From Polaromonas sp. (GTDB lineage: Bacteria; Pseudomonadota; Gammaproteobacteria; Burkholderiales; Burkholderiaceae_C): a stretch of 64,000 nucleotides of DNA. Of this stretch, positions 27,581 through 47,549 are shown in pieces (within the stretch, counting starts at the first letter, position 1; every line of letters begins with the position of its first letter). A program made the position numbers and the translations under genes. The stretch spans positions 1,948 through 65,947 of the forward strand of contig NZ_JAUXUP010000015.1 of NCBI RefSeq assembly GCF_030680935.1, in the 5' to 3' direction. The notes under the pieces are model-generated. The model was not told the origin of the DNA. It searched no databases and was given only the letters and a program-made list of their open reading frames with translations.

Positions 27581-28261
27581 ATGCAGACCCCAACCGCCGA
27601 TACCACCGCAGCGCGCCGGCCACGTGGCCGACCGCGCAAAACGCTGGATGAGCGCGATGACGGCAACCGACGGGTAGAGCTGGTCAACGCGGCGGCACGC
27701 CTTTTTCGCCGCAAGGGATTTGATGCAACAAGCACCCGGGACATCGCCACCGCGGTTGGCATGCACAGCGGCTCGCCGTTTTATCACTTCAAAAGCAAGG
27801 GCGCGCTGCTGTATGCAGTGATGGACGAGGGCATGCGCTCAGCCACCTTGCGTCAGACCGCTGCCCTTGAGCAGGCCTGTGCTGCCTTGCCCGATGCAGC
27901 GGCCCTTTTACGGGTGCTTGTGCGCAATCATTTCGATATTCTGCTGGGCCCTGGCAGCGACTTTATTCCGGTCATGCTGTACGAGTCGCGCTCCATCACC
28001 GCGCGCCAGCGCAGCTCCCTGGCCAAACTGCAAAGCGACTACGAATCGGTCTGGCAGCCGGTGCTGCAGGCGCTGAGCGAACAGGGGCGCCTGGGCTGCC
28101 CGGTCAAACTCGCGCGCCTGCTGATTTTTGGCGCCCTGAACTGGTCCGCCCAGTGGTTTGATGCAAAAAAAGGGGCCTCCCTTGACGAGCTGGCCGACGC
28201 GGCCGTCGCGCTGTTTATCGGCAACAACCCGAAACCCCCTGGAAGGAGAGTCCGACCATGA
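27581..28261 (+). CDS. TetR-family regulator (AtuR-like)
   Basis: AAARLFRRKGFDATSTRDIATAVGMHSGSPFYHFKSK; its stop overlaps the atuB start (ATGA). Confidence 0.9.
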   Translation: MQTPTADTTAARRPRGRPRKTLDERDDGNRRVELVNAAARLFRRKGFDATSTRDIATAVGMHSGSPFYHFKSKGALLYAVMDEGMRSATLRQTAALEQACAALPDAAALLRVLVRNHFDILLGPGSDFIPVMLYESRSITARQRSSLAKLQSDYESVWQPVLQALSEQGRLGCPVKLARLLIFGALNWSAQWFDAKKGASLDELADAAVALFIGNNPKPPGRRVRP

Positions 28262-29142
28262 GTTACCGATCCATTTTCAGTGCCGAACTGTTTGCCGGCA
28301 AGGTGGTGGTCGTGACAGGCGGGGGCTCGGGCATAGGCCGCTGCACGGCGCATGAGCTGGCAGCTCTGGGCGCCCATGTGGTGTTGATCGGGCGCAAGCT
28401 CGAGAAGCTGCACGACGTGGCGGGCGAGATTGTGGCCGCCGGTGGCCGCGCCAGTTTTCACCCCTGTGACATCCGGCAAGAAGCGGCGGTGCAGGCCACG
28501 GTGGCGGCCATCGTGCTGGCGCATGGCCGTATCGACGGCCTGGTCAACAACGCCGGCGGCCAGTACATTGCACCGCTGGAAAGTATCAGCGCCAAAGGCT
28601 GGGAGGCCGTCATCAACACCAACCTGACCGGCGGATTTTTGATGGCGCGTGAGTGTTACCTGCAGGCCATGGCCGGACACGGCGGCAGTATCGTCAACAT
28701 CGTTGCCGACATCTGGGGCTCGATGCCTTCCATGGGACACAGCGGTGCGGCGCGCGCTGGCATGGTCAGTTTCACCGAGACGGCCTCGGCGGAGTGGGCG
28801 CACAGCGGCGTGCGTGTCAATGCGGTGGCGCCGGGGTACATCGCTTCCAGCGGCATGGACCACTACCCGCCTGAAGCTGGCGCCATGTTGCGCGAGATGC
28901 GCCACACCGTGCCGCTGGGCCGCTTTGGCACCGAGGCAGAAACTTCGGCAGCGATTGTGTTTTTGCTGAGCCCGGGCGCGAGTTTTATCAGCGGCACGGT
29001 GTTACGCGTCGATGGCGCGCGGCCGCAGGTGCGCATGGGCTGGCCCATGCGCCTGCCAAATGCCCAGGCACAGCAGCGTGAGGCGGTCAAACCCTTTGAC
29101 GGCTTTCATCTGGCCACGACGCCGAAGGTGTTTCAGCCGTGA
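28258..29142 (+). CDS. atuB: SDR, citronellol/citronellal dehydrogenase-like
   Basis: MSYRSIF..LFAGK...TGGGSGIGRCTAHELAALGAHV, MGHSGAARAG; followed by atuC-F. Confidence 0.82.
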   Translation: MSYRSIFSAELFAGKVVVVTGGGSGIGRCTAHELAALGAHVVLIGRKLEKLHDVAGEIVAAGGRASFHPCDIRQEAAVQATVAAIVLAHGRIDGLVNNAGGQYIAPLESISAKGWEAVINTNLTGGFLMARECYLQAMAGHGGSIVNIVADIWGSMPSMGHSGAARAGMVSFTETASAEWAHSGVRVNAVAPGYIASSGMDHYPPEAGAMLREMRHTVPLGRFGTEAETSAAIVFLLSPGASFISGTVLRVDGARPQVRMGWPMRLPNAQAQQREAVKPFDGFHLATTPKVFQP

Positions 29143-30782
29143 CAGTTTTCCAGTCAGGGTTCAATTCACAGGGCGCGGTGGCCCTTCAGCGCCGCGAAGC
29201 CATGCTGGCGCGTATCGCGGCGCTGCGGGCGTTGGAAGACCGCGCAGCCCAGGCCTCGGCCAAATCGAAGCCGGTGTTCGACAAGCGCGGCCAGTTGTTG
29301 CCGCGCGAGCGCGTTGCCTTGCTGCTCGACCCGGGCACACCCTATTTGCCGATTTGCGCATTGGCCGGTTTCATGCAGGACAACAAGGACCCCGCGCTGT
29401 CAGTGCCCGGCGGGGGCGTCGTTGCGGGTATCGGATTTATCGAAGGCACGCGCTGCATGATCGTTGCCAGTGATTCCGGGATTGAGGCCGGTGCCATCCA
29501 GGCCATGGGGCTGGAGAAAATCCTGCGCGTGCAGGAGATCGCGTTACAGAACAAGTTGCCCTTTGTCCACCTGGTTGAAAGCGCTGGGGCCAACCTGATG
29601 CGTTACCGGGTTGAGGGTTTTGTCCACGGTGGCGCCCTGTTTCGCAACCTCGCGCGCCTGTCGGCTGCGGGCATTCCAGTCATCACCGTACAGCACGGTT
29701 CGGGCACGGCAGGCGGTGCCTACATGCCGGGCCTCAGTGATGTGGTCATCATGGTGCGCAATCGCTCGCGCGCTTTTCTGGCGGGCCCGCCGCTGCTGAT
29801 GGCGGCGACGGGCGAAGTGGCGACCGAGGAAGAGCTGGGTGGCGCCGAGATGCACACCAGCGTCTCGGGCCTGGGCGAGCAACTGGCTGAGGACGACCGG
29901 CAGGCGCTGGGCCTGGCGCGGCAGGTAGTTGGCCGCACATCATGGTCAATTCGGGCTTCAGCCCTTGCCGGACACGCGCAGTCAGCTATTGAATCCATAG
30001 CAAACGAGCCCTTGTATGCGGCGGAAGACTTGCTCGGCTTGATGGCCGCTGACTTGCGCCAGCCGGTGGACATGCAGGAGGTCATGGCCCGGCTGGTTGA
30101 TGGCTCGGATTTCCTGCCCTTCAAGGCCCTGTATGGCGCGGCAACGGTGTGTGTGCAGGCCAGCATGGGCGGCCATGCGGTGGGCATCATCAGCAACAAC
30201 GGCCCGATTGATGTGGCCGGTGCCAACAAGGCCACACACTTCATCCAGATGTTGTGCCAGCTGGGTCACCCCATCATCTATTTGCAGAACACCACGGGTT
30301 ACATGGTTGGCAAGGACAGCGAGCAGGGCGGCATGATCAAACACGGCTCCAAGATGATCCAGGCCGTCACCAACGCCACAGTGCCGCAAATCACCATCCA
30401 GTGCGGTGCCTCGTTTGGCGCGGGTAACTACGGCATGTGTGGCCGGGGTTACGCACCGCGCTTCCTGTTCAGCTGGCCCAGTGCCAAAACTGCTGTGATG
30501 GGCGGCGAGCAGGCGGCGCGCACCATGCAGATCGTGACCGAGGCGGCCATGCTGCGCAAAGGCATTGCGGTGGACGCGGCGCAATCGCAGGCGCAGTTTG
30601 ACAAGATCGTGTCGGTGTTCGAGGCGCAGGCCGACGCCTTCTACACCTCTGGACTGCTGCTGGATGATGGCGTGATTGACCCGCGCGACACCCGGGCCGT
30701 GCTGACGCAATGCCTGGCCATGTGCGCCGACGCAGCAACGCGGCAACTGCGGCCCATGCAGTTTGGCGTAGCCCGGATGTGA
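29139..30782 (+). CDS. atuC: Geranyl-CoA carboxylase beta (carboxyltransferase) subunit
   Basis: RERVALLLDPG, LVESAGANL, GAGNYGMCGR, PRDTR...MQFGVARM. Confidence 0.85.
   Translation: MTVFQSGFNSQGAVALQRREAMLARIAALRALEDRAAQASAKSKPVFDKRGQLLPRERVALLLDPGTPYLPICALAGFMQDNKDPALSVPGGGVVAGIGFIEGTRCMIVASDSGIEAGAIQAMGLEKILRVQEIALQNKLPFVHLVESAGANLMRYRVEGFVHGGALFRNLARLSAAGIPVITVQHGSGTAGGAYMPGLSDVVIMVRNRSRAFLAGPPLLMAATGEVATEEELGGAEMHTSVSGLGEQLAEDDRQALGLARQVVGRTSWSIRASALAGHAQSAIESIANEPLYAAEDLLGLMAADLRQPVDMQEVMARLVDGSDFLPFKALYGAATVCVQASMGGHAVGIISNNGPIDVAGANKATHFIQMLCQLGHPIIYLQNTTGYMVGKDSEQGGMIKHGSKMIQAVTNATVPQITIQCGASFGAGNYGMCGRGYAPRFLFSWPSAKTAVMGGEQAARTMQIVTEAAMLRKGIAVDAAQSQAQFDKIVSVFEAQADAFYTSGLLLDDGVIDPRDTRAVLTQCLAMCADAATRQLRPMQFGVARM
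29961..30001 (+). repeat. 41-bp spaced motif, copy 6 (in frame in the atuC inter-domain linker)
   Basis: GCCC-TTGCCGGACAC-GCG-CAGTC-AGCT-ATTGAATCCA-TAGC; encodes ALAGHAQSAIESIA. Confidence 0.8.
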
Positions 30783-30802: not shown

Positions 30803-31984
30803 ATGCAATACACCCACGAACACCTTGAAATCCAGAAAACCCTCAAGCGTTTTATTGACGCCGAGATCAACCCGCATGTCGATGAGTGGGAGGCCGCCGA
30901 GATGTTTCCGGCGCATGAGATATTCAAAAAACTGGGTAATCTGGGCCTGCTGGGCCTGACCAAACCCGAGGAATACGGCGGTGCGGGGCTGGACTACTCC
31001 TATGGCGTGGCCATGGCCGAAGCCCTGGGCCACATCGATTGTGGCGGCGTGCCCATGGCGATTGGTGTGCAGACCGACATGTGCACACCGGCGCTGGCAC
31101 GGTTTGGCAGTGAGGAACTCAAACGCGAGTTCCTGGCCCCGGCCATTGCTGGCGATACGGTAGGCTGTATTGGTGTGAGTGAGCCCGGCGCCGGCAGCGA
31201 CGTGGCTTCCATCAAAAGCCATGCGCGCAAGGATGGCGACGACTACATCATCAGCGGCCAGAAGATGTGGATCACCAACAGCCTGCAGGCCGACTGGATG
31301 TGCATGCTGGTCAACACCGGCGACGGGCCGCAGCACAAGAACAAAAGCCTGGTCATGGTGCCCATGCGCGACAAGGGCAAGCTGCGCAAGGGCATTGAGG
31401 TCGGCAAGAAAATCAAAAAAATCGGCATGAACGCCAGCGACACCGGCTTGATTTATTTTGACGAGGTGCGTGTGCCGCAACGCAACCGGATTGGTGCAGA
31501 AGGCTCGGGTTTCATGTACCAGATGATGCAGTTTCAGGAGGAGCGGCTTTGGGCCGCAGCCAGCTGCATACAGTCACTGGGCAATTGCATTGACTGGACG
31601 GTGGCGTGGGCGCACGAGCGCAAGCTGTTTGGCGCCACGCTGGCCGACCAGCAGTGGGTGCAGTTCAAGCTGGCCGAGATGAAAACCGAGGTCGAGGGCC
31701 TGCGAGCCATGACCTACCGCGCCTGCGAGTTGTATGTGCAGGGCCAGGACGTGACCGAACTCGCCTCCATGGCCAAGCTCAAGGCCGGGCGCCTGAACCG
31801 GCTGGTGCCCGATACCTGTTTGCAGTTCTGGGGCGGCATGGGCTACACCTGGGAAAACAAGGTGGCACGCATGTTCCGGGATGGCCGACTCGCATCGATT
31901 GGCGGCGGTGCCGACGAAGTGATGATGGGCATCATCGCCAAGTACATGGGCCTTGCCAAGAGCAGCAAAAAAGCCGCGGCCTGA
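30803..31984 (+). CDS. atuD: Citronellyl-CoA dehydrogenase-like acyl-CoA dehydrogenase
   Basis: MQYTHEH, GCIGVSEPGAGSDVA, GQKMWITN, FQEERL, SIGGGADEVM. Confidence 0.85.
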   Translation: MQYTHEHLEIQKTLKRFIDAEINPHVDEWEAAEMFPAHEIFKKLGNLGLLGLTKPEEYGGAGLDYSYGVAMAEALGHIDCGGVPMAIGVQTDMCTPALARFGSEELKREFLAPAIAGDTVGCIGVSEPGAGSDVASIKSHARKDGDDYIISGQKMWITNSLQADWMCMLVNTGDGPQHKNKSLVMVPMRDKGKLRKGIEVGKKIKKIGMNASDTGLIYFDEVRVPQRNRIGAEGSGFMYQMMQFQEERLWAAASCIQSLGNCIDWTVAWAHERKLFGATLADQQWVQFKLAEMKTEVEGLRAMTYRACELYVQGQDVTELASMAKLKAGRLNRLVPDTCLQFWGGMGYTWENKVARMFRDGRLASIGGGADEVMMGIIAKYMGLAKSSKKAAA

Positions 31985-32784
31985 TGACCCCAGCCATGGC
32001 CCCCAAGTTACAGATCACCCGTTCGGGTGAGGTCGAGCATTGGACGCTGCACGATCCCGCCACACGCAACGCGCTGACCGAAGAGCTTGTGGGCGCCTTG
32101 CAGCTGGCCTGCGAGCGCGTGAGCGCAGACGCCGCGCTGCGTTTTGTGGTGTTGCAGGGCAGTGACGGCGCCTTTTGTGCCGGCGGCAGCCTGGGCGGTT
32201 TTGCCGCCTCTATTGGCCAGGCGCTGCCGGCCGGGCAAACCGATCCGCTGATTGCGATGAATGCGGGCTTTGGCAGCTTGCTGAACAGCCTCAGCGCGCT
32301 GCCACAGATCTTGCTGGTGGCCGTGGACGGGCCAGCCATGGGTGGCGGCCTGGGCCTGGTGTGTTGCGGCGATTTTGTGCTGGCTTCTCCGGCTGCGGTG
32401 TTTGCCACGCCTGAAGTCACCCTGGGCGTGGTGCCCGCACAGATTGCACCCTTTGTGCACCGGCGGCTGGGTGACCGCCACGCGCGTCAGTTGCTGCTTT
32501 CTGGGCAAAAGCTGTCTGCAGAGCAAGCGCTGGGGCTGGGGCTGGTGGACGAAGTTGCAGCTGATTTGCAAGCCGCCGTGGCGCAACGTATCCAGCTGTT
32601 GCGCCGCGCAGCACCTGGCGCGGTGGCCCACACCAAGGCTTTGTTTTGTATGCTCAATCAGGCTGCAGCCCAGGACATACAAGCGCAAGCAGCTCTCAAA
32701 TTCGTAGCGAATTTGCGCAGCCCTGAAGCCGCTGAAGGCTTGGCAGCGTTTGCGCAAAAGCGCAAGCCCGGGTGGGCGGCATGA
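31984..32784 (+). CDS. atuE: Isohexenylglutaconyl-CoA hydratase-like crotonase
   Basis: FCAGGSL, GPAMGGGLGL, PEVTLGVVPAQIAPFV, AFAQKRKPGW; TGATG coupling to atuD. Confidence 0.8.
   Translation: MTPAMAPKLQITRSGEVEHWTLHDPATRNALTEELVGALQLACERVSADAALRFVVLQGSDGAFCAGGSLGGFAASIGQALPAGQTDPLIAMNAGFGSLLNSLSALPQILLVAVDGPAMGGGLGLVCCGDFVLASPAAVFATPEVTLGVVPAQIAPFVHRRLGDRHARQLLLSGQKLSAEQALGLGLVDEVAADLQAAVAQRIQLLRRAAPGAVAHTKALFCMLNQAAAQDIQAQAALKFVANLRSPEAAEGLAAFAQKRKPGWAA
32668..32708 (+). repeat. 41-bp spaced motif, copy 7 (in frame in the atuE C-terminal helix)
   Basis: GCCC-AGGACATACAA-GCG-CAAGC-AGCT-CTCAAATTCG-TAGC; encodes AQDIQAQAALKFVA. Confidence 0.8.
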
Positions 32785-34727
32785 CGGCCACGCCCATTCG
32801 CCGCCTCTTGATCGTCAACCGCGGCGAAATAGCCCGTCGCATCATCCGCACCGCGCAGCACATGGGCATGGCGACGGTGGCGGTGTATTCGGATGCTGAC
32901 GCGCAGGCTCTGCATGTGCATGAAGCCGACGCGGCGGTGGCGCTGGGTGGCAACCAGTCGGCCGACTCCTATTTACGGATCGACAAGCTTCTGGCTGCAG
33001 CGAAGAGGGCGGGTGCCGACGCGGTCCACCCCGGCTACGGCTTTCTGAGTGAAAACGCAGACTTTGCCCAGGCCGTTGTGGAAGCGGGGCTGATCTGGGT
33101 CGGGCCGCCGCCGGCAGCGATTCGTGCGCTGGGTGACAAGGCCAGTGCCAAGGCGCTGGCCGTGCAACGCGGTGTTCCCTGCCTGCCTGGCTACCAGGGG
33201 GCAGACCAGTCCGAAGCGCGATTGATGGCCGAAGCTGAAACACTGGGCTACCCCCTGATGGTCAAGGCCGTGGCAGGCGGGGGCGGGCGCGGCATGCGGC
33301 TGGTGCAGGGGCCCACCCAGCTTCTGCCGGCCCTGCAAAGCGCTCGGTCCGAAGCGTTGTCTGCCTTTGGCAACGGGGGCCTGTTGCTGGAGCGCGCGCT
33401 CTTGAGCCCGCGTCACGTCGAGCTACAGATCTTTGCCGATGCACATGGCCATTGCATCCACCTGGGCGAGCGTGATTGTTCGGTTCAACGGCGTCATCAA
33501 AAGCTGATTGAGGAGTCACCGAGCCCGGCGATGGATGCCGACCTGCGTGAGCGCATGGGAGCCTGCGCGGTCGAGCTTGCGCTGGCAGCAGGTTATGTGG
33601 GCGCTGGCACCGTGGAGTTTTTACTCGACGGCGGCGAGTTCTTTTTGATGGAGATGAACACCCGGCTGCAGGTCGAGCACCCGGTCACCGAAGCGGTGAC
33701 TGGCCTGGACCTGGTCGAGTGGCAGTTGCGCATTGCGCAGGGTGAGGCGCTGCCCCTGCGCCAGGACGAGCTCGTGTTCAGCGGTCACGCCATCGAGGTG
33801 CGTTTGTGTGCCGAAGACGACGATTTTTCCCCGCATGCCGGACAGGTTCTTCATTTTGCTGAGCCATTACATGCACGTTTTGACCATGCGCTGCAAGCCG
33901 GAGTCAAGGTCACACCTTTCTACGACTCGATGTTAGGCAAGCTGATCGTGCATGGCGCCACGCGGGACCAGGCCATCGATGGTTTGATTGCGGCCCTGGC
34001 TGACACCCAGGTGCTGGGCCTGCCGACCAATCGCGCTTTTCTGGCGGCCTGCCTGGCACATCCGGTATTCAGGGCGGGCCAGGCCTTGATTCCTTTCCTG
34101 GCCGAGCACGGCGAAACCATCCGCAAGACGCTTCAGGAGCAGAAGTCCCGGGTGCAGTTGCCGGCCGCGCTGGGCCTGCATTTCGCGGGCAGTACGGGTG
34201 CTGCCCGGGCCTTGCCTTGTCCGTTTGGCAAGATGCTGCGCCTGTTTCAGGGGGAGCACGAGTTGGCAATCACGGTTCGGGAAATGGGTCATGGCCAACT
34301 GGAGGTTCTGTCCGGTTCACAGCAACATTCAGGCGCTTGTACGCGCTCCAGCCCGGGCGCCATGTTTGTCACGGTGGATGGACTCACCCGCGCCGTACAG
34401 GCTTGCCAGGCGGCGGATGGTCAATGGCATGTGCAGGTGGGTGCCACCGACCTCTGGCTGACGGACGCGAGCCTGTTACCGCCAGTGGGCGCGGCCTCCA
34501 GCAGCCAGACGAAGGAGCTGCGGGCGCCGTTTAATGGCAAGGTGATTGCGATCCACGTCGCCGCCGGCCAGACGGTCCGGCGTGGTGACAGCCTGTTGGT
34601 GATTGAATCGATGAAGCTTGAACACGCCTTGTGTGCGACGCGGGATGCCACGGTGACAGAGCTGACCGTGCAAACCGGCCAGCAGATGGCCACTGGGCAG
34701 GTCTTGTTGAGGTTTGACCATGGATAA
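32781..34727 (+). CDS. atuF: Geranyl-CoA carboxylase alpha (biotin carboxylase plus biotinyl domain)
   Basis: NRGEIA, HPGYGFLSEN, GGGGRGMR, EMNTRLQVEHP, biotinylation site ESMKLE. Confidence 0.87.
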   Translation: MTATPIRRLLIVNRGEIARRIIRTAQHMGMATVAVYSDADAQALHVHEADAAVALGGNQSADSYLRIDKLLAAAKRAGADAVHPGYGFLSENADFAQAVVEAGLIWVGPPPAAIRALGDKASAKALAVQRGVPCLPGYQGADQSEARLMAEAETLGYPLMVKAVAGGGGRGMRLVQGPTQLLPALQSARSEALSAFGNGGLLLERALLSPRHVELQIFADAHGHCIHLGERDCSVQRRHQKLIEESPSPAMDADLRERMGACAVELALAAGYVGAGTVEFLLDGGEFFLMEMNTRLQVEHPVTEAVTGLDLVEWQLRIAQGEALPLRQDELVFSGHAIEVRLCAEDDDFSPHAGQVLHFAEPLHARFDHALQAGVKVTPFYDSMLGKLIVHGATRDQAIDGLIAALADTQVLGLPTNRAFLAACLAHPVFRAGQALIPFLAEHGETIRKTLQEQKSRVQLPAALGLHFAGSTGAARALPCPFGKMLRLFQGEHELAITVREMGHGQLEVLSGSQQHSGACTRSSPGAMFVTVDGLTRAVQACQAADGQWHVQVGATDLWLTDASLLPPVGAASSSQTKELRAPFNGKVIAIHVAAGQTVRRGDSLLVIESMKLEHALCATRDATVTELTVQTGQQMATGQVLLRFDHG

Positions 34728-35886: not shown

Positions 35887-36377
35887 CCTTGACACCCCCG
35901 CTACGCGCCGCAGAGCCCGCAGGGTTCGAGCCCGAATTCATCAACGGCCTGAAAACCCTGTTTGAAGAGAAAATTTCCTTCAACCGCGTATTGGGGCTGA
36001 AGATCACCTTGCTCACGCCGGCGCGTGTTGCGGCGCGTATCACGATGACCGATCAACTGGTCGGTCACTACACGCACAACCGCGTTCATGGCGGCGTGAT
36101 CAGTGCCGGGCTTGACGCCATGGGCGGCTTGGCGGTGATGGCCGCCATAGGAGCGCGCCACATGGACGAGTCACCGCTGCAGCGCCTGCAGCGTTTCAGC
36201 AAGCTGGGCACCATCGACCTGCGGGTGGACTACCTGCGCCCCGGTATCAGCGAATATTTTGAGTTGCGCGCCGAAGTCTTGCGCCTGGGCTCACGCGTGG
36301 CCAGCACCCGCATGGAGTTTCTCGGTGCCGACGGCAAGTTGCTGTCCACCGGGGCGGGCGCTTACATCGTTTCATGA
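35883..36377 (+). CDS. PaaI-like thioesterase
   Basis: HGGVISAGLDAMGG, GTIDLRVDYLRPG. Confidence 0.88.
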   Translation: MTLTPPLRAAEPAGFEPEFINGLKTLFEEKISFNRVLGLKITLLTPARVAARITMTDQLVGHYTHNRVHGGVISAGLDAMGGLAVMAAIGARHMDESPLQRLQRFSKLGTIDLRVDYLRPGISEYFELRAEVLRLGSRVASTRMEFLGADGKLLSTGAGAYIVS

Positions 36378-39234: not shown

Positions 39235-41091
39235 TTAGCGATACATCGCTTCGATCGGGGTGGCGTACTTCTTCTCGACCAGCTTGCGTTTGAGTTTCAT
39301 GGTCGGGGTCAGCTCTTCGTCTTCTGCACTGAGCTGGGTTTCCAGCAGAAAAAACTTCTTGATCTGCTCGACCCGCGCAAACTTCTTGTTGACCCGGTCC
39401 ATCTCGCTCTGGATCAGTTCCTGCACCGCCGCTGCACGCGTCAGGCTCAGGTAGTTGCTGAAGGGCACATCGTTGTCCTGCGCGTATTTCTCAACATTCT
39501 CCTGGTCGATCATCACGATGGCCGTCAGGTAAGGGCGCTTGTCACCAATCACCACCGCGTCGGTAATATAAGGCGAGAATTTCAGTTCATTTTCCAGCTC
39601 ACTGGGCGTGACGTTTTTGCCACCTGCCGTGATGATGATGTCTTTCATGCGGTCGGTGATGCGAAAGAATCCTTCCTCGTCCATCAGCCCCACGTCGCCC
39701 GTGTGCAGCCAGCCGTCGGCGTCTATGGTCTCTGCTGTCTTTTCGGGCAGGTTCAGATAGCCCATGAAAACATTGGGGCCGCGCACCAGAATTTCTCCCG
39801 TTGCCGGGTCGAGTTTGACCTCGTTGTAGCCTGCGGCCGGTCCTATGGAGCCCGGCTTGATTCGGCTGGCCGGAACACCGGTGGCCGCACCGCAGGTTTC
39901 CGTCATGCCCCACACTTCCAGCATTGGCACGCCCAGCGCCATGTACCACTTGACGAGTTCTGGCGAAATAGGTGCAGCGCCGGTGACGCAAAAACGAGCA
40001 CGGTGGATACCTATGAGTTTTCTTGCATTGTCCAGCGCGATCCAACGGGCAATCGTGAACTTCAACTTCAGCCAGCCACTGACCGCTTCGCCCGCCATGA
40101 CCTTGTCGGCGATCTCGGTGCCCACGCCTATACCCCAGGCATACGCGCCCTGCTGCAGCGGGCTTGCCTCCTTGAGTGCAATCATCACGCCGGAGTAAAA
40201 CTTTTCCCAAACCCGGGGTACAGCAGTGAAAACGGTGGGCGCAATCTCACGTACGTTTTCCGGGATGGTCTCGGGGTTTTCGACAAAGTTGAGTTTGGCG
40301 CCGGTGTACATTGCAAAATATTCGCCGCCCATGCGCTCGGCAATGTGGCATAGCGGCAGAAAACACATGCGCTCATCATTCTCATCCTGCGCTACCAGTG
40401 TGTTGTAGCCGCGCGCGGTGAACACCAGACCCCGGTGGTTGTGCATCGCGCCTTTGGGCTTGCCCGTGGTGCCCGAGGTGTAGACCAGAATGGCCAGGTC
40501 TTCGGGCCTGCAGGCATTGGCGCGTTTTTCAACGGCATCCGGATGCTGCGCGAGGTAGTTGCGGCCCAGTTCGCGCAACGCGGCCAGGCTGATGACATCG
40601 GCCTCATCCAGATCGCGCAGACCTTCCATGTCAAATACAACAATCTTGCGCAGGATGGCCAATTGACTGCGCACTTCGAGGGCTTTGTCGAGCTGCTCGT
40701 CGTCTTCCACAAACAGGATGGTGGTGCGTGAGTCCTCGCAGAGGTAATGCACTTGCGACGCTGCATCTGTCGGGTAGATGCCATTGGCGACACCACCGCA
40801 ACTGAGCACAGCCAGATCCGCCAGCACCCACTCAATCACGGTGTTGGAGAGGATGGACGCACATTCGCCGGGCGCAAAGCCCAGGCTGATCAGTCCGGCA
40901 GAAATTTCCCGTACCGCTTCACCCGTCTGGTTCCAGCTCCAGCTGCGCCAGATGCCGAGCTTCTTCTGCCGCATCCAGACCTTGTCCTGGCGCTGGTTGA
41001 CGCCGTTCCAGAACAGGGCGGGAATCGTTTCGCCTTCAAGCACTACGCGGGTTTCAGGCTGGATGTGGGAGAGATCCCAAAGATTGCTCAT
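39235..41091 (-). CDS. Long-chain fatty-acid--CoA ligase (FadD15/AtuH-like)
   Basis: YTSGTTGKPKG, FLPLCHIAER, WGMTE, GWLHTGD, DRMKDIIITAGGKNV, LTPTMKLKR. Confidence 0.93.
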   Translation of the reverse strand: MSNLWDLSHIQPETRVVLEGETIPALFWNGVNQRQDKVWMRQKKLGIWRSWSWNQTGEAVREISAGLISLGFAPGECASILSNTVIEWVLADLAVLSCGGVANGIYPTDAASQVHYLCEDSRTTILFVEDDEQLDKALEVRSQLAILRKIVVFDMEGLRDLDEADVISLAALRELGRNYLAQHPDAVEKRANACRPEDLAILVYTSGTTGKPKGAMHNHRGLVFTARGYNTLVAQDENDERMCFLPLCHIAERMGGEYFAMYTGAKLNFVENPETIPENVREIAPTVFTAVPRVWEKFYSGVMIALKEASPLQQGAYAWGIGVGTEIADKVMAGEAVSGWLKLKFTIARWIALDNARKLIGIHRARFCVTGAAPISPELVKWYMALGVPMLEVWGMTETCGAATGVPASRIKPGSIGPAAGYNEVKLDPATGEILVRGPNVFMGYLNLPEKTAETIDADGWLHTGDVGLMDEEGFFRITDRMKDIIITAGGKNVTPSELENELKFSPYITDAVVIGDKRPYLTAIVMIDQENVEKYAQDNDVPFSNYLSLTRAAAVQELIQSEMDRVNKKFARVEQIKKFFLLETQLSAEDEELTPTMKLKRKLVEKKYATPIEAMYR

Positions 41092-41244: not shown

Positions 41245-42042
41245 TCATCTCCATGTCTTCTTCTTCTTCCAGCGGCGCTCACTGCGCACGCCGTCTTCCT
41301 TCATGCCCAGGTAGAACTCCTTGATGTCTTCCTTTTCCCGCAACCGGGCACAGGTGTCTTCCATCACGATGCGGCCGTTTTCCAGCACGTAGCCGTAGTC
41401 GGACGCGTTCAGGGCCATGTTGGCGTTTTGTTCAACCAGCAAGATGGTGGTGCCGCGCTCGCGGTTGATGCGCACCACGATCTCGAAGATTTCCTTGGTC
41501 AGCTTGGGGCTGAGGCCCAGGCTGGGCTCGTCCAGCAGGATCAGGTCGGGCGAGGCCATCAAGGCGCGCGAGATCGACAACATCTGCTGCTGGCCGCCCG
41601 AGAGCAGGCCCGCATCCTGCAAGGCCCGCTCGCGCAGGATGGGGAAGTAGCCAAACACGGCTTCAATGTCTTTGGCCACGCCATCGCGGTCCTTGCGGGT
41701 GTAGGCGCCCATCAGCAGGTTGTCGCGCACGCTGAGCAGCGGGAACACCTCGCGGCCTTCGGGCACATGGCTCAGGCCCTGCTGCACAATGTAGGCCGGA
41801 TCTTGCGCGGTGATGTTGCCGCCCTTGAACTCGATCGAGCCTTTGCGCGGATCGATGATGCCGGAGATGGTTTTCAAAATGGTGGTTTTGCCCGCGCCGT
41901 TGGAGCCCAGCACGGTGGCGATTTCGCCGCGCCGCACCTGCAGGCTGACGCCGCGTATGGCCTTGATCGGTCCGTAAGAGCTCTCGACGTTGAGCAGCTT
42001 GAGCACGGGCTGGTCGCTGACCGGAGGAGGTACGGCGCTCAT
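41245..42042 (-). CDS. ABC ATP-binding protein, LivF-like
   Basis: GSNGAGKTT, PEGREVF, LSGGQQQM, LLDEPSLGL, VEQN. Confidence 0.93.
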   Translation of the reverse strand: MSAVPPPVSDQPVLKLLNVESSYGPIKAIRGVSLQVRRGEIATVLGSNGAGKTTILKTISGIIDPRKGSIEFKGGNITAQDPAYIVQQGLSHVPEGREVFPLLSVRDNLLMGAYTRKDRDGVAKDIEAVFGYFPILRERALQDAGLLSGGQQQMLSISRALMASPDLILLDEPSLGLSPKLTKEIFEIVVRINRERGTTILLVEQNANMALNASDYGYVLENGRIVMEDTCARLREKEDIKEFYLGMKEDGVRSERRWKKKKTWR

Positions 42043-42890
42043 GAGCGGGCCTCCTGGTTGAGATTGACCGGCTGGTGCTGGCGGCGCAGTGACGACACAT
42101 CATCGACCGAGCCGAGGTAGGCCTCGATCACGCCAGGGTCGTTTTGCACCTCGCGCGGTGTGCCCATGGCGAGGACTTCGCCCTGGTTCATGGCCAGCAC
42201 CCGGTCAGAGACCTTGGAGACCAGCGTCATGTCGTGCTCCACCATCAGCACAGTGATGCCCAGCTCGTTTTTGATGTCCTGGATCCAGAAAGCCATGTCG
42301 TCGGTTTCTTCCACATTCAGGCCCGAGGAGGGCTCGTCTAGCAGCAGCAGCTTCGGTTCAGTGCACAAGGCCCGAGCCAATTCCACCACTTTGCGCACGC
42401 CATAGGGCAGGCCGGCAACATAGGAGTCGCGGTGATGCTGCAAGTCCAGGAAGTCGATCACCTCCTCGGCTTTTTCACGCGCCTGAATCTCAGCCTCACG
42501 GGTTTTCTGGGTGAAGAAGATTTCGCTCCAAAGCCCGGTTTGCCTGTGGGTGTGCCGGCCTATCAGCAGGTTGTGCAGTACGGTGGCGTGTTCAAACAAT
42601 TCGATGTTCTGGAAGGTGCGCGCAATGCCCAGCGCGGCGATCTTGTGCGGTGGCTGATCGGTCAGCTTGGCGCCCAGGTAGTCGATCTCGCCGGTGGTGG
42701 GCGTGTAGATGCGGCTGATCAGGTTGAACACCGTGGTCTTGCCCGCACCGTTGGGGCCGATCAGGGTGAAGACTTCGCCCTGCTTGACATCAAAGCTGAC
42801 GTTGTTCACGGCCAGCACGCCGCCAAAACGGACACTGAGGTTTCTTGCGGACAGCAAGGGCTGCCCGGCTGGTTGTAGTGTGGGGCTCAT
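42039..42890 (-). CDS. ABC ATP-binding protein, LivG-like
   Basis: GPNGAGKTT, ARTFQN, LPYG, LLDEPSSG, EAYLG. Confidence 0.93.
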   Translation of the reverse strand: MSPTLQPAGQPLLSARNLSVRFGGVLAVNNVSFDVKQGEVFTLIGPNGAGKTTVFNLISRIYTPTTGEIDYLGAKLTDQPPHKIAALGIARTFQNIELFEHATVLHNLLIGRHTHRQTGLWSEIFFTQKTREAEIQAREKAEEVIDFLDLQHHRDSYVAGLPYGVRKVVELARALCTEPKLLLLDEPSSGLNVEETDDMAFWIQDIKNELGITVLMVEHDMTLVSKVSDRVLAMNQGEVLAMGTPREVQNDPGVIEAYLGSVDDVSSLRRQHQPVNLNQEARS

Positions 42891-43963
42891 TTCAGACGAT
42901 CTGATTTCTGGAAGGATTTCTGCCGCTTGAACATGCCTTTTCGGTAAAACGGAAAGGTCTGCAGATAGGTACGCACTTTCAGCCAGCGGCCATACAGGCC
43001 CAGGGGTTCAAACAGCACAAAGGCAATCAACACCATGCCATACACCACGCCTTGCAGGCCCGGTGCCTGGCCGATGGCGGCGGGCAGGTAATCCTTGACC
43101 AGCGCAATCGCCTGCGGCATCGAGATCAGGAAGATTGCACCCAGAAAGGCGCCGTGCACCGAACCGACGCCGCCGACCACAATCAGCAGCAGCAGCTCTA
43201 TGGACTGCAGGATGTTGAATTGGTCGGGCGATATGAATTGCAGCTTGTGTGCATACAGGGCGCCGGCGACACCGGCCAGTGCTGCCGACAGCGCAAACGA
43301 AAGGGTTTTGTAGCGCGCCAGGTGAATGCCCATGCTTTGCGCGGAAATTTCCGAATCTCGGATAGCCACAAAGGCGCGGCCCGTCGGTGAACGCAGCAGG
43401 TTCAGGATGGCCAGCGTAGAGACAACCGCCAGTAGCAGGCAGAGAAAATAGAAGGCTTCGCCGCTGTCCAGCTTCCAGCCGAACATGTCGGGCGCCTTGA
43501 TGTGGATGCCCGAGTTGCCGCCGGTGACGCTTTCCCAGCGTGCAAAGACCTCCTCGACGATGAAGCCGAAGGAAAGTGTGGCCATGCCGAGATAGATGCC
43601 TTTGACGCGCAGTGCCGGCAAGCCAACAACCAGACCCACAGCGGCCGACAGGCCGGCCGCGCAGGCCAGCGCAATCGGAAAGGGCACACCGGCATTGGTC
43701 ATGACGGCCTGGGTATAGGCGCCGACGCCAAGAAAGGCGGCATGACCCAGCGAGAACAGTCCGGTGAAGCCCGCCAGCAGCATCAGTCCCAGGCCGGCAA
43801 TCGAATAGATCAGGATGAAGGTCAGCTGGGCCAGCCAGTATTCGGCAAACAGCCAGGGCGCAGCAACCAGCAGCAGCATCAGCGCGCCGTACCAGAAGAC
43901 ATGCCCGCCGTGTTTGGCAAGCTTGATGTCCTGCCCGTAGTCGGTTTTAAATATGAAACGCAT
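42887..43963 (-). CDS. ABC permease, LivM-like
   Basis: GLFSLGHAAF, LRVKGIYLGMATL, TGRAFVAIRDSE. Confidence 0.92.
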   Translation of the reverse strand: MRFIFKTDYGQDIKLAKHGGHVFWYGALMLLLVAAPWLFAEYWLAQLTFILIYSIAGLGLMLLAGFTGLFSLGHAAFLGVGAYTQAVMTNAGVPFPIALACAAGLSAAVGLVVGLPALRVKGIYLGMATLSFGFIVEEVFARWESVTGGNSGIHIKAPDMFGWKLDSGEAFYFLCLLLAVVSTLAILNLLRSPTGRAFVAIRDSEISAQSMGIHLARYKTLSFALSAALAGVAGALYAHKLQFISPDQFNILQSIELLLLIVVGGVGSVHGAFLGAIFLISMPQAIALVKDYLPAAIGQAPGLQGVVYGMVLIAFVLFEPLGLYGRWLKVRTYLQTFPFYRKGMFKRQKSFQKSDRLK

Positions 43964-43969: not shown

Positions 43970-44845
43970 TTAGACTTTCTTGCGGAGTTTTTCGCCGAAC
44001 AAACCGTTGGGCTTGACCATCAGCATGAACAGCACCACCACATAGGCCGCGATGTCCTTGATGCCATCGGGCGCGTAAAAACCGGCCAGCGATTCGACAA
44101 TGCCGATGATCAGGCCGCCGACAATGGCACCGGGCAAGCTGCCGAAGCCGCCAACCACCGCGGCCGGGAAGGCCTTCAAGCCGATGAAACCCATGTTGGC
44201 GTGTACAAAAGTAATGGGCGCGAGCAGCAGTCCAGCGACCGCTGCTACGGCTGCGGCCAGACCCCAGACAAGCCCATTGATGCGTTTGACCGGAATACCC
44301 ATGTAGTAGGCGGCCAGCTGGTTCTGCGATGACGCCTGCATGGCAATGCCCAGCTTGCTGTACTTGAACGCCGCAAACAGCACGAGGCACAATGCAGCGG
44401 TGCTGCCGATGACGGCCATTTTTTCGACATTGAGCACCAGCGCGCCGACGTTCCAGATCTGGTCCTTGTAGGGCACGGGCAGGGTGTGGGTTTCGGTGCC
44501 TATGCCGGGGATCATGGTGATCAGGCCGCGTGCCGTGTAGCCGACACCGATGGTCAGCATCACAATGGAAAACGCGGGTTGACCGAGGATGGGCCGTATC
44601 ACCAGCCGCTCCAGCAGCACGCCGAACAGGGCCATCCCGGCAATCGAGCTGAGGATGGCCAGCCAGTAGGGAAAGCCCAGCATGGTCATGCAGGCCAGTC
44701 CGCCGAAAGCGCCCAGCATCATCAGCTCACCCTGCGCGAAGCTGACCGTCTCGGTGGCCTTGTAGATGAGCACAAAACCCAGCGCGATCAGCCCGTAAAT
44801 ACAGCCCTGCGCTGAGCCGTCGATGATCAATTGCAATATCTGCAC
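43970..44845 (-). CDS. ABC permease, LivH-like
   Basis: GCIYGLIALGFVLIY...SFAQGE, AAVVGGFGSLPG; GTG start at 44845. Confidence 0.9.
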   Translation of the reverse strand: MQILQLIIDGSAQGCIYGLIALGFVLIYKATETVSFAQGELMMLGAFGGLACMTMLGFPYWLAILSSIAGMALFGVLLERLVIRPILGQPAFSIVMLTIGVGYTARGLITMIPGIGTETHTLPVPYKDQIWNVGALVLNVEKMAVIGSTAALCLVLFAAFKYSKLGIAMQASSQNQLAAYYMGIPVKRINGLVWGLAAAVAAVAGLLLAPITFVHANMGFIGLKAFPAAVVGGFGSLPGAIVGGLIIGIVESLAGFYAPDGIKDIAAYVVVLFMLMVKPNGLFGEKLRKKV

Positions 44846-44862
44846 TTTTACTCCACAATAAA

Positions 44863-44890
44863 TTTTTACAAAGCAGGTGCTTGGTAAAAA
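44863..44890. promoter_or_regulatory. 28-bp palindromic operator in the livH/atuA divergent promoter
   Basis: TTTTTACAAAGCA-GG-TGCTTGGTAAAAA (13-bp arms, 1 mismatch); matches 27526-27553. Confidence 0.75.
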
Positions 44891-44971
44891 TAAACGAATT
44901 GCCGGAAGGCGGGCCGAGCCGCAACTTTTTTCCGCTTTGAATTTGACGGGGTTGATCATGAGCTGGATTCA

Positions 44972-46366
44972 ATGAAAAAATCAATCCGGATTGGTGCCGG
45001 GTTGGGTTTCTACGGAGACGCATGGGAACCGGTGCTGGCAAGCATTGAGCGTGGAGGTGTTCAGTACATCGCGAGTGACCACCTCGCCGAGCTCACGCTG
45101 GCGATCTTGCAGAAGGACCTGCAGCGTGATGTTTCCCTCGGCTACGCTAGGGACGTGGTGCCCATGCTCATGCGTTTGTGGCCGGCCATGGCGCAGCGAA
45201 AAGTACGCTTCATCTGCAACGCCGGAGGCCTCAATCCGGCCGGTGCGGCAGCCGCTGTTCGCGACGCTTTTGCGGCAAAAGGATGGACTGCGCGCGTCGC
45301 CGTTGTGACAGGAGACGAGGTTTTAAAGCAGCTCTCTGACCTGGCACCGGCACATATGTTTAACGGCGCTTCATTTGATTCGGTGTGCGAGCGCATGGTG
45401 TTTGCAAATGCCTATCTTGGCGCGCGCCCCATCGTTTCTGCACTGCAGCAGGGCGCAGATATCGTGATCACCGGGCGTGTGGCCGATGCGGCCCTATTTC
45501 TCGCGCCGCTGGTGCATGAGTTCGACTGGAACCTGGGTGACAGTGCGGATCCTGCGACACCCGCCGACCTGAATCGTCTGGCCCAGGGCCTGGCTGTCGG
45601 GCACCTGCTCGAGTGTTCGGGTCAGGGCAGCGGCGGCAACTTTGGCAGCCTGCAGGCCTGGAAAGATATTCCCGATCTGGCCCACATCGGTTATCCGATT
45701 GCCGAGGTCAGTGAAGACGGCAGCGCCGTCATCACCAAGGCGCCGGGCACCGGTGGCCGCATCAACTTCGACACCGTGCGCCAGCAACTGCTGTACGAGG
45801 TGCATAACCCCCACGCCTATGCCTCCCCCGATGTGATGCTGGACCTGTCCACCATCCTCCTCGAAGACCTGGGCCAGGACAGGGTGCGCATGACGGGCGC
45901 GACGGGCCACGCGCGCCCTGAGCAACTCAAGGTCGTGGGTGGCTATCGCGACGGCTTCAAGGCCGAGGTGACCTGGGGCTTCAGCTGGCCTGACGCGTAC
46001 GACAAGGCGCTGGCGGCAGTACAGATGGTGAAGGCGCAGCTGGCCGACAAGGCGGTGCCGCACGAGGCGTTGTTTGTCGAATTTCCGGGGCTCAACTCGG
46101 CGCATGGCGCGCTGGCGCCCCTGCCTGATACCGCCGGGCTGGCAGACCTCAACGAAGTGTGGGTGCGCATGGTGCTGCGCACGAACGATAAAAAAGCCGC
46201 TGACGGTTTTGGCCGCCTGTTTCCGTGGATGGGGCTCAGCGGCCCGGCTTACACCTGCGGTTTTCACGGCTTGCACAACACCAGCGAATTGCTCGGCATC
46301 TGGCCGGCGCTGATAGACCGCAGCCTCGTCGAGCCAAACACGCGCGTGGAGCTGCTACAGACATGA
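44972..46366 (+). CDS. atuA: Acyclic terpene utilization AtuA-family protein (DUF1446; N-terminal part of a split AtuA)
   Basis: IRIGAGLGFYGD, DHLAELT, NAGGLNP, ANAYLGA, ITGRVAD, GHLLECSGQ, QLLYEVH.P..Y.SPDV. Confidence 0.85.
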   Translation: MKKSIRIGAGLGFYGDAWEPVLASIERGGVQYIASDHLAELTLAILQKDLQRDVSLGYARDVVPMLMRLWPAMAQRKVRFICNAGGLNPAGAAAAVRDAFAAKGWTARVAVVTGDEVLKQLSDLAPAHMFNGASFDSVCERMVFANAYLGARPIVSALQQGADIVITGRVADAALFLAPLVHEFDWNLGDSADPATPADLNRLAQGLAVGHLLECSGQGSGGNFGSLQAWKDIPDLAHIGYPIAEVSEDGSAVITKAPGTGGRINFDTVRQQLLYEVHNPHAYASPDVMLDLSTILLEDLGQDRVRMTGATGHARPEQLKVVGGYRDGFKAEVTWGFSWPDAYDKALAAVQMVKAQLADKAVPHEALFVEFPGLNSAHGALAPLPDTAGLADLNEVWVRMVLRTNDKKAADGFGRLFPWMGLSGPAYTCGFHGLHNTSELLGIWPALIDRSLVEPNTRVELLQT

Positions 46367-46752
46367 ACACACCCGCACAGAAAATACAGCTTGCCCGGCT
46401 GGCCCATGCGCGCAGCGGCGACAAGGCCGACTGGGTGGACTTCGGCCTGTTTGCCTGGAACGAAACTGGATATGCCGTCCTGGCCCGCGAGGTCACGGTC
46501 GAGCGTGTGCAAGCCCACTTTGCCCCCTGGCTGCCGGGCCGGGTCGAATGCTGGACCTTGCCGAACATTCTGGCGATCAAACTGGTGTTGCATGACGCGC
46601 TGCAGGGCGGCGGTGCGCGCAACCTGCGGCTGGACAACCTGGGCAAGTCCATGGCGGCGGCGCTGCTGCGCATGGAGATCAATGTCAACGACTATGAACT
46701 CGCCGCCTGCCTGGCGGCGCCCCGTGTTGGCTGGTGGGGAGACAAACCATGA
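46363..46752 (+). CDS. Small AtuA-related protein (AtuA C-terminal domain-like)
   Basis: LARLAHARSGDKAD, LHDALQGGG..NLRLDNLGKS; ATGA-coupled to atuA. Confidence 0.82.
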   Translation: MNTPAQKIQLARLAHARSGDKADWVDFGLFAWNETGYAVLAREVTVERVQAHFAPWLPGRVECWTLPNILAIKLVLHDALQGGGARNLRLDNLGKSMAAALLRMEINVNDYELAACLAAPRVGWWGDKP

Positions 46753-47549
46753 GTATTCATGTTGAAAAAAATGGGGAGGTCACGGTCATCACGCTGGACC
46801 GCCCCGACGTGCGCAATGCAGTGGACAGCGACCATGCGCGTGAACTCTACGAAGCTTTTCTGGCCTTTGATACCGATGACAGCGCGAAGGTAGCGGTGTT
46901 CCATGGCGCGAACGGACATTTCTGTGCCGGCTGGGATTTGCAGTTCGGCGCAAAGCTGCTGCGCGAAGCGCAGGGCGGCGATGCCGGGGTGTTTGCGGAC
47001 CTGGAATTCCAGGCAGAGGACAAACAGCCAGCCGGTCCCATGGGCCCCTCCCGGCTGCTGCTGTCCAAACCGGTGATTGCCGCCGTCAGCGGCGCAGCCG
47101 TCGCCGGCGGCATGGAGCTGGCGCTGTGGTGCGACATGCGGGTGATGGAGGAAGACGCCTACTTCGGCGTGTATTGCCGCCGCTTCGGTGTGCCGCTGAT
47201 CGACGGCGGCACGGTGCGCTTGCCGCGCCTGATCGGTATGGGCCATGCGATGGATTTGATCCTGACCGGTCGCAAGGTTGAGTCGGCGGAAGCTTTGCAG
47301 ATGGGGCTGTGCAACCGGGTGGTGCCGCGCGGCACAGCGCGCGAGGCGGCGCTGGCATTGGCGCGGCAACTCTCGACTTTTCCGCAGAAAACCATGCTGG
47401 CGGATCGCCAGAGTGTTTACACGCAGTGGCACCTGCCCTTGCCGCAGGCGCTCAAGCAGGAGTGGGACCGCGGCCGGGAATGTATTGCCGAGGGCCTGCA
47501 GGGCGCCGCGCGTTTTGCCGGCGGGCAGGGCCGGCACGGCAAGTTTTAG
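46749..47549 (+). CDS. Crotonase/enoyl-CoA hydratase
   Basis: LDRPDVRNAVD, FCAGWDL, AVAGGMELALWCD, CRRFGVPLIDGGTVRLPR. Confidence 0.92.
   Translation: MSIHVEKNGEVTVITLDRPDVRNAVDSDHARELYEAFLAFDTDDSAKVAVFHGANGHFCAGWDLQFGAKLLREAQGGDAGVFADLEFQAEDKQPAGPMGPSRLLLSKPVIAAVSGAAVAGGMELALWCDMRVMEEDAYFGVYCRRFGVPLIDGGTVRLPRLIGMGHAMDLILTGRKVESAEALQMGLCNRVVPRGTAREAALALARQLSTFPQKTMLADRQSVYTQWHLPLPQALKQEWDRGRECIAEGLQGAARFAGGQGRHGKF

Follow-up and report, generated by a model that had tools for sequence, protein, structure and literature searches.

A Predicted Atu-Type Gene Cluster of Polaromonas with a Linked ABC Importer and CoA Ligase

Gene Layout of the Locus

A gene set of about 20 kb is located in a stretch of 64,000 nucleotides from a Polaromonas sp. 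(assembly GCF_030680935.1, contig NZ_JAUXUP010000015.1, positions 1,948 to 65,947), and this whole stretch is called the window below. The set probably serves the breakdown of methyl-branched (terpene-type) acids, with an ATP-binding cassette (ABC) importer and a CoA ligase of its own. An original prediction, made from the sequence alone, had named 18 genes here, and all 18 were recovered in the proposed order and on the proposed strands by open reading frame (ORF) listing and by Pfam and NCBIfam scans (Table 1). A plus-strand operon runs from a TetR-family repressor gene through genes at the atuB to atuF positions to a second acyl-CoA dehydrogenase (ACAD) gene and a thioesterase gene. It converges on a minus-strand unit, livH-livM-livG-livF-ligase-SBP2-SBP1 (SBP, substrate-binding protein), with a gap of 45 bp between the thioesterase and SBP1 genes, and the minus-strand unit is divergent from atuA-atuA′-crotonase.

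Two gene calls needed correction. A livH start at ATG 44959 was rejected in favor of the GTG at 44845, leaving a divergent region of about 125 bp that contains a palindrome (see section Operator and Regulon). ORF 46391–46765 was rejected as atuA′, having no Pfam or NCBIfam match, and is replaced by the frame that starts at 46363. The description of the plus-strand operon as mostly translationally coupled agrees with the junctions from the TetR gene to the thioesterase gene, six of seven of which overlap by 1–14 nt. An Rfam scan of window 21000–50000 gave no match.

Table 1. Genes and sequence features of the cluster, in window positions.
Feature	Position	Strand	Remarks
Candidate operator O1	27525–27555		31-bp palindrome ATTTTTACAAAGC-N4-GCTTGCTAAAAATA, 26 bp upstream of the TetR start
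TetR-family repressor, AtuR-like	27581–28261	+	PF00440 and PF17932; heads the carboxylase operon
Short-chain dehydrogenase/reductase (SDR), atuB position	28258–29142	+	adh_short_C2, 171 bits
Carboxyltransferase β subunit, geranyl-CoA carboxylase (GCC) type, atuC position	29139–30782	+	Top PDB match 5ikl_B
ACAD, atuD position	30803–31984	+	Three ACAD domains; 90–95% conserved in congeners
Crotonase, atuE position	31984–32784	+	ECH_1
Biotin carboxylase and biotin carboxyl carrier protein, α subunit, atuF position	32772–34727	+	Biotin_carb_N, CPSase_L_D2, Biotin_carb_C, Biotin_lipoyl
ACAD2, second acyl-CoA dehydrogenase	34714–35886	+	32% identical to the first ACAD
Hotdog thioesterase, PRK11688/YigI family	35883–36377	+	NF008675, 199 bits (cut-off 107)
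SBP1, LIV/HAAT-type periplasmic binding protein	36423–37580	−	Peripla_BP_6, 232 bits
Hairpin (13-bp stem), then promoter-like site TTGACA-16-AAGAAT, ahead of SBP1	37620–37738	−	
SBP2, SBP1 paralogue	37831–39069	−	27-residue C-terminal extension
Terminator-like hairpin and T-run between ligase and SBP2 genes	39171–39194	−	
Long-chain-type acyl-CoA ligase, FadD11/ACSL-like	39235–41091	−	618 aa; AMP-binding and AMP-binding_C_3
livF, ATPase	41245–42042	−	ABC_tran/BCA_ABC_TP_C; LivF best NCBIfam model, below cut-off
livG, ATPase	42039–42890	−	ABC_tran/BCA_ABC_TP_C; LivG best NCBIfam model, below cut-off
livM, permease	42887–43963	−	BPD_transp_2
livH, permease	43970–44845	−	BPD_transp_2; GTG start at 44845
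Candidate operator O2	44862–44892		Palindrome ATTTTTACAAAGC-N4-GCTTGGTAAAAATA in the livH/atuA divergent region
AtuA, catalytic-size subunit	44972–46366	+	PF07287, 425 bits
AtuA′, small subunit	46363–46752	+	PF23544 (AtuA ferredoxin-like domain), 79 bits; ATG start overlaps the atuA stop
Crotonase ECH2, PRK08259 family	46734–47549	+	NF006108, 390 bits (cut-off 273)

The Carboxylase Operon

The β subunit encoded at the atuC position matches the GCC β subunit of P. aeruginosa (5ikl_B) best among PDB entries, with 576 bits and 52% identity, and its match to the β subunit of methylcrotonyl-CoA carboxylase (MCC) is weaker (461 bits, 45% identity). At the selectivity site of these enzymes, GCC has Gly162 where MCC has Phe191, and in MCC a three-residue insertion directly precedes this site (Jurado et al., 2015; PMC4673880). 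In the alignments, the motif reads VHGGALFRNL in the window protein, VEGARGFANQ in GCC, and EHFGRIFFNQ in MCC; at the Gly162/Phe191 site the window protein thus carries Gly, and it has one additional residue compared with the three of MCC. The Gly162 column was assigned from the printed alignments by means of the chain numbering (+1) and of the HFGR stretch that is conserved in bacterial and human MCC. The genome encodes a second carboxylase β subunit on contig C30, which has Phe at the selectivity site as well as the insertion (DHFGRIFYNQ). Its neighbors encode an ACAD, a crotonase/enoyl-CoA hydratase (ECH), an α subunit, and an HMGL-like lyase, and the genome therefore has a separate Liu cluster.

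The order SDR-β-ACAD-hydratase-α in the window is collinear with atuB-C-D-E-F of Pseudomonas. The α subunit contains the SMKL biotinyl-lysine motif; its top PDB match is the α subunit of P. aeruginosa MCC (556 bits), and as MCC is the only α type among its PDB matches, this subunit does not separate GCC from MCC. For the SDR, the closest NCBIfam models are those for generic SDRs and for 2,4-dienoyl-CoA reductase, all below cut-off. The crotonase at the atuE position has as second-best PDB match 4zu2, an AtuE-type structure of P. aeruginosa annotated 'putative isohexenylglutaconyl-CoA hydratase' (159 bits). The adjacency of the ACAD2 and thioesterase genes is kept in relatives, and no paralogue of the TetR protein is found elsewhere in the genome at E < 1e-20.

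In Polaromonas aquatica (locus L109, 10881–14074), no crotonase gene is present between the ACAD and α subunit genes, and a further locus (L056) also has none after atuA′. Judged from the sequence, the hydratase step must be encoded elsewhere in P. aquatica.

AtuA and AtuA′

AtuA is split across two genes, with PF07287 in the product of one and PF23544 in that of the other. A PDB sequence search with AtuA gave a sole match, 9erq/9evf, annotated 'AtuA family protein | citramalate lyase subunit A (cmlA)', and the corresponding search with AtuA′ gave chance matches only. The AlphaFold model of AtuA (pLDDT 70) likewise has one significant fold match, 9evf_A, a 'citramalate lyase - ADP - pyruvate complex' (E 1.9e-18, TM-score 0.53, 17% identity). 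The cmlAB genes of Raoultella planticola encode a two-gene enzyme that has been used, in a preprint, to cleave citramalate directly to pyruvate and acetate. As the only solved relative is a citramalate lyase, we infer by analogy that AtuA/AtuA′ may be the acetate-releasing lyase of the pathway.

The resemblance includes the subunit plan, an AtuA-family large subunit with a separate small one, and the chemistry, since acetate is released when CmlAB cleaves its tertiary-alcohol acid, as has long been proposed for AtuA. In contrast, the substrate of CmlAB is a free C5 dicarboxylate, and the identity and TM-score given above are low, the latter having been obtained on a medium-confidence model. 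A more specific assignment, in which AtuA and AtuA′ would form a CmlAB-type, two-subunit, nucleotide-binding C–C lyase that takes acetate from a tertiary-alcohol intermediate (3-hydroxy-3-alkylglutaryl-CoA or an analogue), is possible and is put forward tentatively. If true, it would settle the long-open biochemical role of AtuA, and the constant coupling to an importer–ligase operon and an AtuR-like repressor across Comamonadaceae would place AtuA at the center of a branch-removal module that is linked to uptake and serves environmental isoprenoid acids. The small split pair, together with a solved distant relative, offers a handle on AtuA function.

Among the other AtuA paralogues examined in the taxonomic order, each is followed by a separate gene for a small (ferredoxin-like) subunit, and there is no LIV neighbor. 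A relative in another family (genome G038, 57% identity) and paralogues with 36–42% identity also have no LIV neighbor; linkage to the importer is therefore specific to this AtuA orthogroup. A second AtuA and small-subunit pair in the same genome (C73:18254–20022) was set aside as an unrelated paralogue with 38% identity. Within C73:12991–20022, the ORFs just upstream of this pair presumably encode, as judged by eye, a SIR2-type protein with three short TIR-like proteins on its flanks, a possible Thoeris-like defense locus.

Importer, Binding Proteins, and CoA Ligase

The transporter has the domain set of a HAAT/LIV importer (TC 3.A.1.4), with two BPD_transp_2 permeases, LivG- and LivF-type ATPases, and Peripla_BP_6 receptors. 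SBP1 and SBP2 share 76% identity in DNA and 67–69% in amino acids. A strong hairpin precedes both genes, and a promoter-like site additionally precedes that of SBP1. The co-encoded ligase reaches 408 bits with the FadD11 model NF038343, below its cut-off of 950.

In public annotation, the receptors are named 'branched-chain amino acid transport system substrate-binding protein', and an ordinary branched-chain amino-acid importer that feeds leucine-type catabolism would fit both this name and the finding that, among named NCBIfam models, those for LivJ, LivF, LivG, LivM, and LivH come closest. However, all of these models score far below their cut-offs (for example, 108 bits for the LivJ model on the SBP, compared with 477), and a leucine pathway, Liu, is encoded elsewhere in the genome. 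The closest solved binding proteins reach about 80–90 bits and include LivJ of E. coli (83 bits with SBP1) and PDB entry 4n03, a fatty-acid-binding SBP. The ligand contacts of LivJ are Ser79, Ala100, Thr102, Tyr202, and Glu226, which bind the α-ammonium and α-carboxylate groups. Mapped through the alignment, they correspond in SBP1 to Thr107, Ile128, Ala130, Ile230, and Ser254, respectively. Throughout the SBP family (12 members), position 254 is Ser or Gln, the residues at the Tyr202 and Thr102 positions are Ile and Ala, and Arg132 (in TAAREMYEP) and Arg232 are invariant. Thus, the receptors are without the residues with which LivJ binds the amino group and do not look like amino-acid receptors. 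These residues, together with a CoA ligase in the operon, argue against amino acids and for carboxylates as ligands, and the presence of that ligase inside the transporter operon makes amino-acid import implausible. We consider an ordinary amino-acid importer very improbable.

The prediction had given the importer two receptors. Both are present, but their number is a variable feature, as relatives have one or two, and an orphan third SBP is encoded in the same genome (C67:6508–7743). The orphan is 69–75% identical to SBP1 and SBP2, has a 27-residue C-terminal extension of the SBP2 type, and adjoins genes for Crp/Fnr- and AraC-type regulators; no permease genes lie nearby. The protein homologue search with SBP1 returned only relatives of at least 87% identity, with generic names.

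Operator and Regulon

The candidate operators O1 and O2 share the 31-bp palindrome ATTTTTACAAAGC-N4-GCTTgGTAAAAATA. A scan of the whole genome (3.85 Mb, up to three mismatches) found only three sites, these two in the cluster and one on contig C17. The third is a perfect palindrome, TTTCACAAAGCGATTGCTTTGTGAAA, at C17:27793–27818 (L017 1501–1526), and is located between a thiolase/FadB-like operon and an operon of a dipeptidase-like gene and an ACAD gene. Its half-sites fall within the variation that the atuA operator has among other Polaromonas, which suggests that the AtuR-like regulon extends to β-oxidation.

In 25 of 26 close Polaromonas loci, the O2 site recurs some 100 bp ahead of atuA. 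Its arms are conserved and its 4-nt spacer varies freely, as would be expected if a protein binds the site as an operator. An equivalent of O1 is present upstream of the TetR orthologue in the genomes G009, G008, and G023, in P. aquatica, and in Hydrogenophaga. In more distant genera, TetR orthologues (40–56% identity) head the atuA operon opposite livH, and a related palindrome, AAGCAAGC-N4-GCTT, lies between livH and the TetR gene. Under strict sigma-70 criteria, neither operator region of the window yielded a promoter.

The arms of the Polaromonas operator are similar to the AtuR site of Pseudomonas sp. OST1909, TACAAACCAAGCGCTTGCTTGGTA, which has been validated by electrophoretic mobility shift assay (bioRxiv 10.1101/2025.09.24.678253). 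The two systems share a TetR-family protein, an inverted repeat with TAC(A/C)AAGC-type arms, and a regulon in which atu promoters are joined by a separate β-oxidation gene, which in OST1909 is a lone acyl-CoA dehydrogenase gene (bioRxiv 10.1101/2025.09.24.678253). They differ in half-site spacing, N4 in Polaromonas compared with eight inner bases in OST1909, and in the inclusion of an importer in the predicted Polaromonas regulon. In this way, an AtuR-like repressor from a genus other than Pseudomonas would gain a defined operator and regulon.

Between livH and atuA, the JS666/aquatica clade and some Hydrogenophaga have the conserved motif TTATAGCTGTC-N10-CTGTCGCTAGGGGTTGT(T/C)CC in place of the TetR palindrome. 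This motif is seen in six loci (L056, L059, L062, L065, L077, L079), about 40–110 bp upstream of atuA, and could be the site of a different regulator or a leader element.

Conservation and Co-occurrence

The complete 20-kb layout is present in five congeners whose loci were fetched in full and in about 25 Polaromonas loci, with AtuA 93% identical to its orthologue in Polaromonas sp. A23. As the conservation in about 25 other Polaromonas genomes is gene for gene, a chance layout is excluded. A synteny survey, which the prediction had proposed as a check, found livHMGF-ligase-SBP divergent from atuA-atuA′ without exception across the 80 loci, as far as the fetched sequence extended, including loci from Hydrogenophaga, Piscinibacter, Limnohabitans, and Polaromonas JS666, and also in six of seven more distant loci. 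The crotonase gene after atuA′ is kept in most relatives, though not in all. An AtuA orthologue is present in 24 of 301 sampled genomes of the GTDB family, from 14 genera. In the most distant carriers (AtuA 59–63% identical), livHMGF-ligase-SBP is divergent from TetR-atuA-atuA′(-crotonase), and in locus L116 an SBP gene lies opposite a single string, TetR-atuA-atuA′-SDR-β, arranged as in the canonical atuR/atuABC order.

All 23 other family genomes with an AtuA orthologue also encode a GCC-type β subunit (62–89% identity) and an MCC-type β subunit (43–48%), with the GCC-type gene 13–49 kb from atuA where contigs permit a check. The original prediction had held the ABC importer and the ligase to be part of the Atu system. 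The shared operator, the conserved linkage to AtuA in at least 14 genera, and the constant co-occurrence with a GCC-type carboxylase uphold this, and membership of the importer and ligase in an Atu-like regulon with a predicted shared operator is supported.

The same survey bears on a reading in which atuA-atuA′-crotonase and the ABC–ligase genes form a self-contained module that handles some other imported acid, hydroxy or branched, with AtuA/AtuA′ as a CmlAB-like lyase for it. The closeness of the carboxylase operon would then reflect shared regulation or genomic neighborhood instead of one pathway. Wherever flanks are available, AtuA indeed has a tighter linkage to the importer than it has to the carboxylase, and in several clades the 13–49 kb between the AtuA unit and the carboxylase include unrelated genes. 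GCC operons also occur without the module, and the one AtuA-family structure solved so far belongs to a citramalate lyase that acts on a free acid. However, the module is never found without a GCC-type carboxylase, and the idea that it works without one was rejected on this co-occurrence (23 of 23 carriers). In addition, both units share one operator in this clade, L116 joins TetR-atuA-atuA′ and atuB-atuC in the single string described above, and the Atu pathway of Pseudomonas has a genetic requirement for AtuA. AtuA is also listed among the enzymes of that pathway (PMC4847356). We regard a self-contained module as improbable.

In Polaromonas sp. P2-4, which has a complete genome, atuA contains three in-frame stops (L096 10001–11383) and the gene for the GCC-type β subunit is broken into pieces with a TGA (G046:C1:3578072–3579648); the cluster appears to be decaying in this strain.

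Proposed Pathway and Its Weighing

The identification of the cluster as an Atu-type system, already made in the original prediction, is well supported by comparative evidence, because it combines a GCC-type β subunit that has the diagnostic Gly with atuBCDEF collinearity, a split AtuA, a TetR protein with a palindromic operator, and a separate Liu cluster. The genes are likely to form one regulon for β-methyl-branched (isoprenoid-type) carboxylic acids under the AtuR-like TetR repressor. We infer the ligands, the direction of transport, the assignment of the ACAD and hydratase steps, and the reaction of AtuA. Citronellate, geranate, or longer isoprenoid acids, which the original prediction had named, are thus putative ligands, and its suggestion that the extra ACAD and crotonase broaden the substrate range is speculative and unsupported.

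When no substrate is available, the TetR protein would occupy the palindrome TTTTTACAAAGC-N4-GCTTGGTAAAAA before its own operon and in the livH/atuA region, and probably a further copy at the fadAB-like locus. Binding of an acid or its CoA ester to the repressor would allow expression of the three units. The HAAT/LIV importer, served by one to three interchangeable receptors (SBP1, SBP2, and the orphan), would then carry the free acid across the inner membrane, and the long-chain-type ligase of the importer operon would trap it as a CoA thioester. The block to β-oxidation would be lifted by the atuBCDEF-collinear operon: an ACAD would form the 3-methyl-2-enoyl-CoA, the GCC-type carboxylase would carboxylate the γ-methyl group, and a crotonase would hydrate the product. 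An acetate-releasing lyase, putatively AtuA/AtuA′, would yield a 3-oxoacyl-CoA, and β-oxidation together with the separate Liu cluster would complete degradation.

Several observations weigh against this pathway or limit its reach. The cluster encodes no alcohol or aldehyde dehydrogenase that would act on citronellol or geraniol. The crotonase at the atuE position scores 132 bits with the NCBIfam AtuE model NF004227, the cut-off of which is 426, and operons of the P. aquatica/JS666 type are without a crotonase at this position. In the JS666/aquatica clade, the livH/atuA region is also without the palindrome, having the other conserved motif instead, and unrelated genes (epimerase, glutathione S-transferase, CCA-adding enzyme, and otsBA) lie between the importer and the carboxylase operon. 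The AlphaFold model of SBP1 was left unused, having a mean pLDDT of 64 and values below 50 in the pocket region, which made the pocket unreadable. Lastly, a GCC-type β subunit is encoded in 91 of the 301 family genomes and the AtuA–ABC module in only 24. Among 16 GCC-positive genomes without the AtuA orthologue, 14 have other AtuA paralogues, which are carboxylase-adjacent in one genus only, and two have no AtuA whatever. As the co-occurrence runs one way, the GCC pathway does not require the importer–ligase–AtuA module, which is an accessory dependent on that pathway.

The identity of the acids can be read in another way, in which the co-regulated system is real and its natural substrates are other than monoterpenoid acids. 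Candidates would be long-chain isoprenoid acids that derive from phytol or carotenoids, acids of methyl-branched or naphthenic type, and common fatty acids of medium or long chain length, and the GCC-type enzyme would act on any 3-methyl-2-enoyl-CoA. The long-chain FadD11/ACSL type of the ligase, the cold-freshwater Comamonadaceae that are the hosts, the lack of terpene alcohol and aldehyde dehydrogenases in the cluster, a thiolase-ECH-SDR run directly upstream, and the location of the third operator-like site at a general β-oxidation locus are all consistent with such substrates. Moreover, AtuR of strain OST1909 is relieved by C6–C18 straight-chain acids as well as by citronellate (bioRxiv 10.1101/2025.09.24.678253); as the Pseudomonas regulator responds to acids of both kinds, regulon membership does not fix the substrate. 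Conversely, the Gly-for-Phe pocket signature is the published determinant of geranyl-CoA acceptance (PMC4673880), and both AtuA and the collinearity with atuBCDEF indicate the chemistry known from Pseudomonas. These other substrates, which depart from the pathway outlined above only in the chain length and source of the acid, seem to us rather unlikely.

Comparison with Known Systems

The Polaromonas cluster shares several features with the atuR-atuABCDEFGH systems of P. aeruginosa and P. citronellolis: GCC-type α and β subunits, the Gly selectivity residue, the order SDR-β-ACAD-hydratase-α, an AtuA-family protein, a TetR protein with a palindrome that resembles the AtuR site, and a separate Liu cluster. 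In contrast to the Pseudomonas systems, atuA is split in two and relocated outside the operon, where it is divergent from the ABC importer, and the repressor gene is co-directional with atuB-F and heads it. A second ACAD gene and a thioesterase gene stand in place of atuG and atuH, activation would be performed by the FadD11-like ligase of the transporter operon, and the hydratase is only distantly AtuE-like. The Pseudomonas atuABCDEFGH cluster includes AtuH and has no ABC importer (PMC4847356), as the prediction had stated.

The module also resembles other acid importers in its domain composition. Pairs of a HAAT/LIV importer and a CoA ligase are known from acid catabolism, for example from the systems for benzoate, hydroxybenzoate, and pimelate/fatty acids in Rhodopseudomonas and Aromatoleum. 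The two permeases, LivG/LivF-type ATPases, Peripla_BP_6 receptors for carboxylic acids, and a co-encoded trapping ligase are common to these systems and to the predicted Polaromonas importer. The Polaromonas module differs in its attachment to an Atu/GCC pathway and an AtuR-like operator and in having up to three paralogous receptors, and its SBP clade has no member for which a ligand or structure is known, the best PDB match reaching 83 bits.

All parts of the cluster are thus of known kinds, and it is best described as a variant, in which the way the parts are combined, the splitting and relocation of AtuA, and a regulon defined by its operator appear to be new. A literature search did not find this variant described, and searches on Polaromonas with geranyl-CoA carboxylase and on AtuA with citramalate lyase found nothing.

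An Atu-type pathway with a dedicated high-affinity importer and ligase would thereby be placed in widespread freshwater and cold-habitat Betaproteobacteria. The receptors may be the first known to bind isoprenoid or branched acids, and as the importer is publicly labeled a branched-chain amino-acid transporter, many genomes would be open to re-annotation.

Flanking Genes

A same-strand run upstream of the TetR operator (window 21352–27480) encodes a thiolase, an α/β hydrolase, a DsbA-like (HCCA-isomerase-type) protein, a crotonase, an SDR of the PRK08278 family, and a TPR-methyltransferase. The SDR at 25432 had been proposed as AtuG-like. This proposal is unsupported, as the protein is an HSDL2-type SDR in a thiolase-hydrolase-DsbA-ECH-SDR run, in which the genome-wide scan located no operator site, and nothing ties it to AtuG; it is better read as part of a β-oxidation-like run. 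On the other side of the cluster, the minus-strand ORF at window 47612–48781 encodes a 4HBT-type thioesterase, with the domain in its last 110 or so codons. Downstream, to 49924, a plus-strand gene for a fused ABC exporter (ABC_membrane and ABC_tran) is followed by a gene for a LysR regulator.

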